Program-made: the position numbers and the translations under genes | Notes under the pieces: generated by a model | What the model saw: the letters and a program-made list of their open reading frames with translations, nothing else | Told to the model about the DNA's origin: nothing | Databases searched by the model: none | Source of the DNA: Gammaproteobacteria bacterium | GTDB taxonomy: Bacteria > Pseudomonadota > Gammaproteobacteria > JBIOEC01 | Direction of reading: 5' to 3' | Length of the DNA stretch: 32,000 bases | Assembly (NCBI GenBank): GCA_965279305.1 | Contig: OZ257143.1 | Coordinates: 1,350,001-1,382,000 of the forward strand | In this document: one piece after another, positions 12,521 to 20,843 of the stretch | How the letters are laid out: each line of letters starts with the position of its first letter | Position numbering within the stretch: the first letter of the stretch is position 1

Positions 12521-15298
12521 TTACGACGCTGTAGGGTTTGTTGAAGGAGCTGTCACAGCAGGAGGTGTTCCCTCATTAGTTTTAGATTGTTTTAGTTTTG
12601 CCAATCGTTCTGCTAATTGACCACTGAAGTTTGGTGCTGGCGAGCCAGTTCCCGGTCGACCTAATGGTCTTCCTGGTGTTGTAGTTTGTACAGGGGGCGA
12701 TCCCTGTTCTCTGGTTACTGCTTTCTTTAATCTTACTCCAGCTGCTAATGCCGATGCCATATCTAAGGGTGCTCCCGCTTGAGCTGATTTCGTGGGTGTT
12801 GCACTTGATGCAGCAGATCCTGAAAAAACTGCTTGCGGTGGTGGCGGCGGAGGAGGAGGTGGTGGTGGTGGTCCTCCTTGAGGTCCTGTTATTACCACTG
12901 GTGTTACTACTGGTGTTGTAGGAGAAGTTGCCACAGGAGCAAGTGTTGCTGCCGGTGGTGGTAATTGTGGTGGTTTGGGTGTAAATCTTATTTGTTCTGG
13001 TGCTGCAGTTGCTGCAGTAACAAGAGAAAGTGCAGACATTGATGCTGTTCTGGGTCTAGTCGAATTAGCTGTTGCTACACCGATTGGAGCGGGTATCATC
13101 CCTCCTTGTATGGGTGAACCCACTGCCACTAAAGTGGGACGTGCATCAATAGGTGGAAACTGGAGCGCCGATGATTGCGGTGGTGGAAAGGTTGGAGGTA
13201 CAGGAATTACCAGTGTTGGTCTAGCGGGGGCTGCTTTTTTCGGTGCTGGCACAACGCTTTCAGGCAATGGTAATCTTGATAGCCTCATCATCATCGCATC
13301 CTCGTCAATAGAAAGTGCGTCTAATGGGGGCGGAGGAGGCATCATCATAAGATCGTCTAGTGTTTCAGTTTTACCTAGCAATTGATCTAATAATTCCCTC
13401 ATCTCAGGAGCTAATATTAATGGTTCACTCATTCCTGGAATACCGTAGATCGTAAAATCTAATGTAGCCAGTTCCATATTGAGATGTTCACGCTGCTCAC
13501 TGGTTCCGTGTAGAATAATATGCAGAGTTTGAACTATTAAAAGCGATTGCTCTCTTTTTACTTCATCTACTGTTTTATGCTCGTTAGGCAGATATTTTTT
13601 ATCAGCAATAAAACTCTGTATCCATTTTAAAGCAGTATCAGGGGTGCCTTTTTTACCTGTTGAATTAAGATAGCTTTGAAATAATTCATTAGAAAATTGA
13701 TGTGGTTGTTTTGAAGTGAGACGTAAACTTAAGGGTCTATCATCTTGTAATTGTGCCAATAAGATTCCATGATCATTCTCAGCAGTAAATCCATTGGTTA
13801 ACGCTGCTACCCAGGCGAATTCTTCAGCACTTTCTTGGGGTTTGAATTTAATTTTATCGACTAATGCTGTTACCCATTGTTTTAATTGTTCTATGTTTCC
13901 TTGTTTTAAACGGCTACTCATTTGTTCGCGTAAATCACGCAATTGTAAAGGAGCGGTAACTAAACTATTTTCTACGGCTATTGTGGCAGTGGAAGTTGCA
14001 TCTGTATCAACGCCAGTAGGAGCAGCCGGCGCAGGTCTTCTAGCATTAGTGGCTCTTCTTGCTGAGGCTGTTTGTGCTCTGGGTAAGGTGTTAGTGACAA
14101 ATGATGTAAGCTCGGCGTTAAATCCTGCAAACCATTTAAAAAATCCAACAGGCTGTGTTGCTTCTTTATACACTGTTTTTGTTGCATCAACTGCAATGTT
14201 TTTCAAACTAGCGACTTGTTCATTTAGTTCTTGTAATTGGCTAAAATAGCCTTCATGTTGTTTCTTTAATTTAGCTTCATTAACCTTATTTCCACTAAAA
14301 AACTCGCCTACTCGTGTGGAAAAACCACGATTTAATATTGCTTCAATAAGGGTCATGGATTTCTTTAAAGTATAGGCGGTATCGCTCCAGTACATATATT
14401 GTTCTTGGAGTATGGCTTTATCATAAGCTTCTACCGATTCCTGAAATGTTCTCCAGGTGGCGGCTTGTAGTTTCAAGCTTGCTTGGTAGTCTTCACTTTC
14501 GGCTCTTTGTCCAAATAAAGCATGTATTAAGCCGTTAGGTGCTAGAGTTTTGGTTATTTTTTGAAGGGCTGTATAATGAGCTCGATCTGTATTTGTTCTG
14601 GCACGTAAATAATTGATATGCAATTTATAAAACTCATTTTGCTTTAATTCTTTCCACGGCATTTTACGGCAGGCTACTTCAATAGTGACATTTTCTTCTA
14701 CTGATTTGCCATTTTTTACAGTTTTCAAGCTTACTTTTGCGGTTGCAAGTTTGCTTCTGGCTTCGGCTACCAGTGTTCTTGCTTGAATTAATACGGGATC
14801 TGTTATATTTCTAGTAGGTAGCGAATTTTTATTAATAAATGTTAATGCTTGGTCATATTTTTTTAAATGGTCAGTAACCGATTTATAAAATTGATTAAAA
14901 CTCGTATCTATCCATACTAAAAATTCTTCTCTATTTTGAGGTAAAGGACTAGGTAAAGGATACCGAGCTTCTTGCAGTAAATTAACAAAAGCGTATAAAG
15001 CTTGGTTCAGATTATGCTCTTGTTCATGCTTCATTCCATCGCTGTAGCCTTGTTCTAACTGAAATTCTTGAATAACCAGATTGATATTGTAAATACAGTT
15101 TTGCATCTTATCCAAAATGGTTAACTGTTCTTGCAGAGAAAGAGCAGGAGTCGCGTGAGTACTGGGGGTGAGTAGAGCAATTAATGCTCCTGCCTCTGAA
15201 GAAATTTTATTAAGGTGTACTTCTCTTCTACCTGGAGTAAAAAATTTTGAAAATCTATCACTGGTGTTCCTTCTGAAATTTGCAAATAGGCCTGGCAT
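12521..15298 (-). CDS. 925-aa orphan protein: about 650-aa helical N-terminal region plus a proline-rich (FH1-like) C-terminal region with a WH2-type motif. Candidate secreted actin-targeting effector
   Basis: ATG at 15298 is preceded by the SD AAGGAGAAG. No Sec signal peptide. Pro tracts: MMMPPPPP (13325-13348), PVPPTFPPPQ, PKPPQLPPP and P12 (12836-12871). The WH2-like segment is APLDMASALAAGVRLKKAVTRE (12707-12772). ARPTLV occurs twice. The functional call is inference from motifs only. Confidence 0.8.
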   Translation of the reverse strand: MPGLFANFRRNTSDRFSKFFTPGRREVHLNKISSEAGALIALLTPSTHATPALSLQEQLTILDKMQNCIYNINLVIQEFQLEQGYSDGMKHEQEHNLNQALYAFVNLLQEARYPLPSPLPQNREEFLVWIDTSFNQFYKSVTDHLKKYDQALTFINKNSLPTRNITDPVLIQARTLVAEARSKLATAKVSLKTVKNGKSVEENVTIEVACRKMPWKELKQNEFYKLHINYLRARTNTDRAHYTALQKITKTLAPNGLIHALFGQRAESEDYQASLKLQAATWRTFQESVEAYDKAILQEQYMYWSDTAYTLKKSMTLIEAILNRGFSTRVGEFFSGNKVNEAKLKKQHEGYFSQLQELNEQVASLKNIAVDATKTVYKEATQPVGFFKWFAGFNAELTSFVTNTLPRAQTASARRATNARRPAPAAPTGVDTDATSTATIAVENSLVTAPLQLRDLREQMSSRLKQGNIEQLKQWVTALVDKIKFKPQESAEEFAWVAALTNGFTAENDHGILLAQLQDDRPLSLRLTSKQPHQFSNELFQSYLNSTGKKGTPDTALKWIQSFIADKKYLPNEHKTVDEVKREQSLLIVQTLHIILHGTSEQREHLNMELATLDFTIYGIPGMSEPLILAPEMRELLDQLLGKTETLDDLMMMPPPPPLDALSIDEDAMMMRLSRLPLPESVVPAPKKAAPARPTLVIPVPPTFPPPQSSALQFPPIDARPTLVAVGSPIQGGMIPAPIGVATANSTRPRTASMSALSLVTAATAAPEQIRFTPKPPQLPPPAATLAPVATSPTTPVVTPVVITGPQGGPPPPPPPPPPPPQAVFSGSAASSATPTKSAQAGAPLDMASALAAGVRLKKAVTREQGSPPVQTTTPGRPLGRPGTGSPAPNFSGQLAERLAKLKQSKTNEGTPPAVTAPSTNPTAS

Positions 15299-15370
15299 AT
15301 TACTTCTCCTTGTTAGATAGCTGAGTTTTTAGGTTTGAGTTTTGATTATTTTTTGAGCATGTAAACATAT

Positions 15371-20800: not shown

Positions 20801-20843
20801 TCCTGCTGCGAGCTTTATTCCCAGTTTGTTCTTTGGTCGCTAA
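17808..20843 (+). CDS. About 1011-aa Ala/Leu-rich, predicted all-helical orphan protein with a Pro/Ala-rich C-terminus
   Basis: A long uninterrupted ORF. The ATG at 17808 is preceded by the strong SD TAAGGAG (17794-17800). The ORF-track TTG at 17739 would place that SD inside the coding sequence. No motif I recognise and no signal peptide. The tail is KPAPAKVEAPRPAVTATPAAPAPAASFIPSLFFGR. Confidence 0.75.
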   Translation: MRATAPVMTLTTAAKQLDEVLKQPKYAPILGPVPSLQTEALLNAKNLEAALTYGLAVSRALKKVNTLQESISAAGSSVETLLAIDNQLDLLRADLRNLVTISDAEQPFVPFRFLDSYKLYVDVNKAIKNLRTVVLPALSQDIAQKKAAACAAVIAQIGTDTNTTQYADRLAALNTRLTKVLIQESKPSFWDFLVPSFMKTKQKIKDQKERDAINTDLTKLYKELKRHIKSNTVQANSGVHEVEAVNDATLRLVNVFKQLASDDFAQVNHTTVTTDLMVLFTSKITVASVKKEEVLAAIRGLVKAYQDLPATAPAAQRADIHYVLNMSVSGYIAEIDKDFKNEISSAITSIRAAFEGEQAADAKTALSGLHQLNKVWLSALNVFVEKKQESAVVGSSPAKAQKPLTELEANVDTHLAAYVNDLTKALPGLRELKLQEEGSSRSASTIKSDVYSLVAGAFAAYQEHYLDLTATQRTTLSTFLESDLALRVLKLTKPEMQKRNLDLAFLDKLQGVLSKLTANKIGHSDATLKEQIGEILAERAVRVSSISASDDTQLVNLALALFKDVADFYVERAADLYAKASNNQVKPNVFILDCSEALLQALSRHAETAGNALNSTEQLRSDYKQLAETRLLALKNVLEGISTAALNSGKSPDFGAIREVFMNLPVLLASQNDDFEDIQARTLTVITAFVDAYEANDVRFQGYDNVLSTLASVLSNYTYHLESFKPVLERMTVLLEKKQALSTNWNVVDVKVREINDRLRPQLTDAKTISGQRKLSANVAYELIAALGSYVSIASPERRAGVIAHVDSLLGRGKAVEFSALISKLSSDKRALQDFGSVVNAKENQTTSALNNASSSLVETLSEAASQFAVTIGQRVARQDFNQVSDAHAFLATYSGSLSASEYVAVDTALRTEMSLLSAAIIGFAKQMPNLVRAADLPQNSITNVSEASTFLRDILDKLVVEYNACCDSLVKLDSLKPAPAKVEAPRPAVTATPAAPAPAASFIPSLFFGR

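Follow-up and report, generated by a model that had tools for sequence, protein, structure and literature searches.

Pro/Ala/Thr/Ser-rich C-termini of four adjacent orphan proteins in a gammaproteobacterial gene island: candidate disordered spacers with protein-specific ends

In a 32,000-nucleotide stretch of contig OZ257143.1 from a Gammaproteobacteria bacterium (assembly GCA_965279305.1), hereafter the window, four neighbouring genes encode proteins that all end in tails rich in proline, alanine, threonine and serine (PATS). The four genes form an island, with an AddA-like helicase gene (9808-12519, plus strand) on one side and htrA/degP (20972-22408, plus strand) on the other, and encode an orphan protein of 925 residues (p925; 12521-15298, minus strand), a J-domain protein of 251 residues (J; 15428-16183, minus strand), a protein of 452 residues with one ankyrin-like repeat ('ANK'; 16191-17549, minus strand) and an orphan, all-alpha protein of 1011 residues (p1011; 17808-20843, plus strand). 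We consider, at about even confidence, that the tails are disordered PATS spacers carrying protein-specific terminal motifs, typical of these fast-evolving, orphan, effector-like proteins. An initial annotation of this DNA had suggested that the tails might be a shared C-terminal export signal or linker, possibly of common origin. From this interpretation the shared composition and the linker character stand, a common origin and a common discrete signal do not, and an export signal is unproven and would be non-canonical.

The four C-termini singled out by the initial annotation were all recovered where it had placed them (p925, 12524-12580; J, 15431-15560; ANK, 16194-16250; p1011, 20733-20840), and their common composition is both real and specific to the island. 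Over their last 30 residues, the four island proteins have PATS fractions of 0.57, 0.57, 0.63 and 0.60, and, as had been proposed, no other protein of the window has such an end (0.07-0.33; n=24). In an outside control, made of open reading frames (ORFs) called in 19 unrelated loci with a GC content below 45%, a fraction of 0.567 was reached by 1 of 215 ORFs and one of 0.50 by 4 of 215; four adjacent genes above this level are, therefore, far beyond chance.

This composition extends well beyond the ends. When a PATS-rich segment is defined as a 25-residue window with a PATS fraction of at least 0.56, such segments occupy 21.9% of the residues of the island proteins and 0 of 7,595 residues in the other window proteins; what this contrast separates is therefore two classes of protein rather than two sorts of C-terminus. 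In p925, in which an N-terminal part of ~640 residues is followed by a PATS-rich, low-complexity part of ~250 residues, the segments cover residues 395-451 and most of residues 677-925; in J they run across residues 142-249, so that the tail is the end of a longer region, as in p925; in ANK they lie at residues 307-357 and 420-452, and p1011 alone has a short isolated PATS tail (residues 971-1011). The tails do not, then, form a discrete feature of the C-terminus, and in p925 and J they are the end of a low-complexity region of 110-250 residues. In the DNA, the features discussed below are the conserved p925 tail (12524-12679, minus strand; last 52 residues, TPGRPLGRPG...TNEGTPPAVTAPSTNPTAS), the PATS/Arg-rich disordered half of J (15431-15760, minus strand; residues 142-251, ending in RNLFTNWLGW at 15431-15460), the ANK tail (16194-16292, minus strand; residues 420-452, ending in ...RGTAPAPAAPPTSAPSNS), an internal PATS-rich segment of ANK (16461-16613, minus strand; residues 313-363) and the p1011 tail (20733-20840, plus strand; residues 976-1011, ending in ASFIPSLFFGR at 20808-20840).

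All homologues of the island proteins are located on two Logan read-set contigs, L001 (SRR28248352), which is syntenic with window positions 7848-25246 and holds all four island genes, and L082 (ERR3281022; 2.1 kb), which holds ANK plus a J gene lacking its last two codons at the contig end. Among 5.8e9 proteins, p1011 (P0001) has one homologue (P0002), and these two are the whole family; the N-terminal domain of p925 likewise has one, which is the L001 orthologue, and a full p925 profile found nothing beyond that orthologue among 1.84e9 representatives. ANK has two homologues (P0012 and P0013). No relatives were found in JGI metagenome scans using the ANK and p1011 alignments, no match to p925 or p1011 was obtained in Pfam and NCBIfam searches, and no comparable island was present in the neighbourhood of a Legionellaceae metagenome-assembled genome locus (L005). 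The four proteins are lineage-restricted, effector-like orphans.

L001 comes from a close relative: the housekeeping proteins of the window are 95-99.5% identical to their L001 counterparts (dN 0.003-0.02; dN/dS 0.01-0.12), whereas the island proteins are 72-83% identical (dN 0.10-0.19; dN/dS 0.35-0.49, with p925 at 0.49). The island is a fast-evolving patch within a conserved backbone. The non-synonymous rate of the island genes is 5-10 times that of the flanking genes (window 12521-20843 against L001 4662-13039), and dS is also raised in J, ANK and p1011 (0.39-0.50 against 0.16-0.26). The N-terminal ~640 residues of p925 are ~88% identical to L001.

Within this fast-evolving patch, a PATS-rich tail of similar length is retained in all orthologues of all four proteins, while its sequence changes. 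The last 40 residues are 49% (J), 39% (ANK) and 65% (p1011) identical to L001, against 80%, 75% and 77% for the respective bodies, and the PATS fraction of these tails stays at 0.53-0.70. Gap columns in the alignments with L001 are concentrated in PATS-rich segments (53/611, against 17/2,071 elsewhere; Fisher p 2e-21), an 11-fold excess, and differing positions are also more frequent there (28% against 21% elsewhere; p 9e-4). Substitutions of P, A, T or S stay within these four residues in 57% of cases inside the segments and in 43% outside (p 0.07); the codons of all four have C at the second position (NCN), so that they are interconvertible by single first-position changes. In the AlphaFold2 (AF2) models, residues 421-452 of ANK and 975-1011 of p1011 are coil with the lowest predicted local distance difference test (pLDDT) values (24-30 in p1011) and do not dock onto the body. 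The tails combine a biased composition with coil of low confidence, raised indels and substitutions, and retention of composition, and this behaviour is that of low-complexity sequence that is intrinsically disordered.

Pro/Thr- and Pro/Ala-rich interdomain linkers are known low-complexity, intrinsically disordered regions. The island tails resemble them in composition, in being low-pLDDT coil, in fast turnover with composition kept, in length variation by indels and in acting as a spacer ahead of a short conserved element; they differ from them in that they end the protein rather than join folded domains, and in occurring together in four adjacent orphans. The linker alternative offered by the initial annotation is thus well supported by the coil of lowest pLDDT, the gap excess and the faster substitution with retained composition. 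PATS sequence can also be strongly constrained, since the internal segment of ANK (residues 313-363) is near-invariant across three lineages, and this segment shows that PATS sequence in the island proteins is not limited to the C-terminus. Its sequence, AATPKVAPTPRAS...SSGSASFMMGGEASALTMASVQAMVK, is almost unchanged, and the adjoining helical bundle (residues 220-300) is the most variable part of the protein; the segment may be a functional linear motif.

The extreme ends of the proteins are better conserved and yet of different kinds from one protein to another, those of ANK and p925 being S/T/P-rich. J ends in RNLFTNWLGW in the window sequence, RNLLSEWFGW in L001 and RNLFVQWL.. in L082, where the contig is cut, giving the motif RNL[FL]xxW[LF]GW, and the spacer ahead of it is ~50% identical with 7 gap columns. 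Similarly, p1011 ends in ASFIPSLFFGR in the window sequence and ASFVPSWFPGMS in L001, with ASF[IV]PS[LW]F kept behind a spacer that carries substitutions and indels. The ANK end is identical at 15 of 18 positions between the window sequence and L082 (RGPAPAPAAPPTAAPANS), although the whole proteins are just 65-67% identical, and in L001 it is almost wholly replaced (SAPPPKETTSTEPRYT). A frameshift was considered as the cause of this divergence and rejected, the other frames of L001 holding no tail like that of the window sequence. In p925 the last 50 residues (876-925) are 84% identical to L001 and gap-free, against 67% identity and 32 gap columns for residues 641-830. That the conserved ends fall into different kinds speaks against the common discrete signal that the initial annotation had envisaged, and a common origin of the tails fails as well: no DNA repeat joins them beyond a codon-level GCN/CCN similarity of at most 18 nt. 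Shared descent was rejected after a repeat search over 12400-20900, which gave codon-level matches only (18-34 nt, 62-83% identity).

The C-terminal Dot/Icm (type IVB) translocation signal of Legionella/Coxiella was reportedly described by Nagai in 2005, its tiny and polar residues by Kubori in 2008 and its E-block by Huang in 2011, and the positively charged C-terminal signal of type IVA systems is said to go back to Vergunst in 2005. In the 2009 analysis of Burstein et al., the Legionella signal has a hydrophobic residue or proline at -3/-4, tiny, polar and charged residues, more Ser/Thr at -3 to -11, more Asp/Glu at -8 to -18 and less at -1 to -6, and more hydrophobic residues at -1 to -3 (PMC2701608); 16 of the 17 significant results among 400 tests involve D, E, S or T, and neither Pro nor Ala showed enrichment in the 145 Legionella effectors (PMC2701608). 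The S4TE criteria add an EExxE motif and, for type IVA, require that the last 25 residues contain three or more H/R/K and carry a net charge of +2 or higher (PMC3814349). DotM binds Glu-rich peptides (PMC5802825), and Legionella effectors are recruited by several modes besides the E-block (PMC10025392).

Scored against the 24 other window proteins, the canonical Dot/Icm hallmarks are absent or non-discriminating. All four island proteins, but also 14/24 others, have a hydrophobic residue or Pro at -3/-4, so that this feature does not discriminate, and D/E is lacking at -1 to -6 in 4/4 and 13/24. The tiny plus polar fraction of the last 14 residues (0.50-0.64, against 0.36-0.86) is not raised. 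Ser/Thr residues at -3 to -11 number 4, 1, 3 and 2 in the island proteins, against ~1.1 in the others. The missing Glu-rich E-block, which had been noted from the start, is borne out: none of the four tails has one in its last 30 residues (1/24 in the other proteins), and acidic residues at -8 to -18 (1, 0, 0 and 0) are fewer than in the housekeeping proteins (mean ~1.7). Apart from a modest Ser/Thr excess, therefore, the tails show only features that do not discriminate, and they lack the acidic enrichment; by measures of the Legionella type they hardly stand out from housekeeping proteins. They are like a Dot/Icm signal in their position at the extreme C-terminus of effector-like proteins, in being unstructured, in Ser/Thr near the end, in the lack of acidic residues in the last six positions and in the (non-discriminating) hydrophobic/Pro residue at -3/-4, and unlike it in lacking a Glu-rich block, in having hardly any acidic residues at -8 to -18, in being dominated by Pro and Ala, and in a composition that stretches far upstream and recurs internally. 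Genes of PmrA-controlled Dot/Icm effectors carry a tandem TTAAT-type box upstream of the -10 element. No TTAAT-N6-TTAAT box (up to one mismatch) was found in 15299-15427 or in the divergent promoter region 17550-17807, which separates the ANK-J(-p925) genes from p1011, although this box is the one described in Legionella/Coxiella and may differ in this lineage. The region 17550-17807 is ~97% identical to L001, whereas the DNA identity of the island genes on either side is 78-83%; this regulatory region appears to be under far stronger constraint than the coding sequences.

With a type IVA (VirB/D4) signal the tails share the C-terminal position, the unstructured state and the presence on effector-like proteins, but their net charge over the last 25 residues is only +1, +1, 0 and +1 (-6 to +5 in the other window proteins). 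H/R/K residues number 3, 2, 1 and 2, so that p925 alone reaches three, J, ANK and p1011 having 1-2, and all four fall below the S4TE charge threshold; a type IVA positive-charge signal was rejected. Cell-surface sorting signals (LPXTG, PEP-CTERM, GlyGly-CTERM and the C-terminal domain of type IX secretion substrates, T9SS CTD) were also rejected, by inspection, since the proteins have no leader-like N-terminus, hydrophobic helix of ~20 residues or basic terminal cluster. A PDB search with the p1011 tail gave chance matches only (photosynthetic reaction-centre H subunit, E ~6).

In p925, twelve consecutive prolines (12836-12871, minus strand; residues 810-821) are followed, ~23 residues past the run, by LDMASALAAGVRLKKAV (12716-12766, minus strand), which has an exact WH2 register, the module as a whole covering 12716-12871. 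A strict WH2 regular expression matches p925 and its orthologue alone in 1.19 M residues of six-frame ORFs, although the Pfam WH2 profile is not reported for p925 at E<0.1. In the PDB, the last 292 residues match nothing but a gelsolin/Cobl-WH2/thymosin beta-4 chimera, and that weakly (3tu5_B, E 0.25), and BLASTP weakly pairs RLKKAVTREQGSPPVQTT of p925 with KLKKTETQEKNPLPSKET of thymosin beta-4 (E 0.11). The tail sequence KLKQSKTNEGTPPAVTAP (LKKSKTNEG in L001) resembles, also weakly, the stretch that follows the first WH2-like motif, RLKKAVTREQGSPPVQTTTP (45% identity over 20 residues, E 0.09), and the extreme tail (12524-12620) may be the arm of a second, degenerate thymosin/WH2-like repeat; a PDB search with this putative second repeat gave no matches. 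If the resemblance is real, conservation of the p925 tail would need no secretion signal. The polyproline run and the WH2-like motif with its thymosin-like extension suggest an actin-regulating, host-directed p925. Effectors with C-terminal WH2-type modules are known in Legionella (RavH; PMC13481308) and Vibrio (VopF/L; PMC9674292), and Wolbachia Wbm0076 is a bacterial polyproline and WH2 mimic (PMC9980815). Like WASP/WAVE, Cobl, thymosin beta-4 and the bacterial mimics, p925 has polyproline, a WH2 register (hydrophobic helix, Gly, LKK) and then a thymosin-like T-x-E...P-P; unlike WH2 actin regulators, it has no significant profile match, no known relatives of its N-terminal 640 residues and no acidic/Trp Arp2/3-binding region, and its actin binding is putative.

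We propose that disordered, low-complexity PATS regions would pervade the four lineage-restricted proteins and that the tails would be their C-terminal ends. The shared composition would then be a generic property of flexible spacers, with residues gained and lost freely, and not a specific shared signal, whereas functional information would lie in short elements at the very ends, which are better conserved and not the same from protein to protein. In J and p1011, a spacer whose length varies would keep a hydrophobic/aromatic end motif away from the folded body; ANK would present a conserved S/T/P-rich end, and the p925 end could be part of a second thymosin/WH2-like actin-binding repeat. It may be through their unfolded C-termini that these proteins, in which no Sec leader is apparent, are recognised by an export machine or a host partner. 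With low certainty, we favour export recognition for the end motifs of J and p1011.

It is unlikely that the PATS composition of the last 20-35 residues is a variant, acid-free type IVB (Dot/Icm-like) signal common to the four proteins and read by a coupling complex. Such a signal would fit the C-terminal PATS on all four neighbouring effector-like proteins, which by inspection have no obvious N-terminal Sec leader, and the retention of composition by orthologues; Ser/Thr above background at -3 to -11, no acidic residue at -1 to -6 and a hydrophobic/Pro residue at -3/-4 in 4/4 also agree with it (criteria of PMC2701608), as does the use of multiple recruitment modes by Legionella effectors (PMC10025392). 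However, the features it shares with the described signal are non-specific, being present also in 14/24 and 13/24 controls; the described signal is D/E-rich (PMC2701608; PMC5802825), and the tails have no E-block and, with 0-1 acidic residues at -8 to -18, fall under the housekeeping level; Pro and Ala, which dominate here, are not enriched in the 145 Legionella effectors (PMC2701608). PATS sequence also occurs internally, over 100-250 residues, the L001 ANK tail is almost completely changed, and the island promoters hold no PmrA-type box. A reading that we regard as rather improbable places the function of the tails in the eukaryotic host and not in export, as linear motifs (profilin/SH3/WW/EVH1 ligands, proline-directed phosphorylation sites or a second WH2/beta-thymosin arm in p925) conserved for action there. 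The p925 module speaks for it, with 12 prolines and a WH2-like motif unique in 1.19 M residues, weak Cobl-WH2/thymosin beta-4 matches and a tail that resembles the post-WH2 segment (E 0.09) and is as conserved as the WH2-like motif, as do the RavH (PMC13481308) and VopF/L (PMC9674292) precedents and the many TP/SP sites and PxxP of the J tail; but all motif matches are weak (E ~0.1-0.25), the Pfam WH2 match is non-significant, the second p925 repeat has no PDB match, no ligand motif is conserved in the ANK, J and p1011 tails (the J PTAP, for example, is missing in L001) and the eukaryotic host is itself inferred. We give little credence to the view that the tails are non-functional by-products of relaxed selection, slippage-prone GC-rich low-complexity DNA and drifting stops in fast-evolving genes. 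In its favour, dN/dS over the 40 C-terminal codons reaches 0.54-0.98 for ANK and p925, indels are concentrated in PATS segments and the L001 ANK tail is almost completely replaced. Against it stand the presence of a tail of similar length in every orthologue of all four proteins, the conservation of the J, p1011 and p925 ends and of the ANK end (window sequence against L082) above the adjacent spacer or the whole protein, and a dN/dS of 0.17-0.32 in the J and p1011 tails.

The reading of the tails as disordered spacers with protein-specific ends, which agrees with the evolution of both spacers and ends, has several points against it. A PATS-rich segment reaches the C-terminus in 4/4 island proteins and the N-terminus in 0/4, an arrangement that random placement would give with p ~0.002 (segment coverages 38%, 43%, 19% and 7%); this points to C-terminus-specific selection of some sort, which a pure generic-spacer view leaves unexplained. 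The AF2 models are of low confidence overall (mean pLDDT 45 for p1011, which is modelled as all-helical, and 50 for ANK), so that low pLDDT in the tails is weak evidence, and the conservation contrasts draw on two or three lineages only and so rest on small numbers. Moreover, the end pattern common to J and p1011 was drawn up post hoc and is also present at 6 further C-termini in a set of 2,220 ORFs, most of them from a single membrane-protein family.

The gene models and the setting of the island are as follows. The J gene starts at the ATG at 16183, 7 nt past the ANK stop, in agreement with orthologous gene calls; a longer ORF from a GTG at 16273 overlaps the ANK gene. J carries both marks of a J-domain co-chaperone, namely a DnaJ domain above the Pfam threshold (PF00226, E 1.7e-9, 38 bits against a cutoff of 27.8) and an HPD motif (16070-16078; residues 36-38) kept in three lineages. 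Its disordered half (15461-15760, minus strand) contains many TP/SP dipeptides and much Arg (TPNR, SPAR, TPTR, TPQTR, SPRPR); the TP/SP sites look like proline-directed kinase sites, and there is a single PTAP, absent from L001. In ankyrin-repeat proteins the repeats score above the gathering threshold of Pfam, and as a rule two or more of them are stacked. In the 'ANK' protein, which combines its two PATS-rich segments with a single ankyrin-like repeat (17013-17120), a helical bundle and a long helix, all Pfam matches are to the one repeat and below threshold (E 0.02-0.09; Ank_5 15.6 bits against 27, Ank 13.6 against 21.1), and its name is poorly grounded. The stretch with the sole repeat, IDENGASLLARAV...ILAGADLDF, spans 16995-17141 (minus strand) and is modelled with low AF2 confidence.

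The other 24 proteins of the window are mostly housekeeping or regulatory (MlaFEDCB, MurA, BolA, a Na+/H+ exchanger, AddB/AddA-like, HtrA, LepA, LepB, RNase III, Era, RecO, PdxJ, AcpS and a two-component pair). Two of the 24 have no Pfam match; an ORF of 250 residues (2757-3509, minus strand) and one of 141 residues with a Lys-rich tail (28748-29173, plus strand) are without one, and neither tail is PATS-rich. No secretion-system genes, dot/icm included, were found among the proteins of the 32-kb window (Pfam/NCBIfam), and an Rfam search of the window found nothing. The small genome, the GC content of ~39% in the window, the AddAB-type repair pair and the J-domain, ankyrin-like and WH2-like proteins would fit an intracellular gammaproteobacterium, perhaps of the Legionellales.

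The window also contains several palindromes and hairpins outside the four genes. A perfect 29-nt palindrome, AACCTCTAGCGATTATATCGCTAGAGGTT, lies at 20855-20883, directly past the p1011 stop; it is conserved in L001, has no T-run and is probably a terminator hairpin. On the other side of the island, a hairpin with a 20-bp stem (12467-12514) lies within the 3' end of the addA-like gene, just ahead of the convergent p925 stop, and may be a shared bidirectional terminator. In the htrA-lepA spacer, nested GC-rich palindromes make up a 187-nt block (22409-22595) with no counterpart in L001, and the same spacer of L001 (14607-14649) holds a 43-nt hairpin element, ATGGATTGCC.CGGACGC...GCGTCCTCGCAATGAC, of which an inverted copy is found elsewhere in the window (29179-29221); these palindromes and hairpins look like small mobile elements of the repetitive extragenic palindrome (REP) kind.

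Disordered proline-rich regions in host-interacting proteins are an already known kind of feature. It is improbable, in our judgement, that the tails define an acid-free class of C-terminal export signal in a barely sampled intracellular gammaproteobacterial lineage, with an unfolded PATS spacer presenting a hydrophobic or an S/T/P-rich end, of which the hydrophobic type would read hydrophobic-hydrophobic-x-x-[WLF]-[FL]-(x)-G, as in RNLFTNWLGW and ASFIPSLFFGR. If such a signal were real, the coupling complex would recognise a feature different from the Glu-rich motif that DotM of Legionella binds. A new export signal would also provide a sequence handle on the effector repertoire of an unsampled host-associated lineage, and would widen the rules for type IV substrate recognition. 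C-termini that are alike in composition only give little evidence of a shared signal. What the tails chiefly mark, on present evidence, is a small cluster of fast-evolving orphans that are probably directed at a host, among them one protein with a polyproline/WH2-like module.

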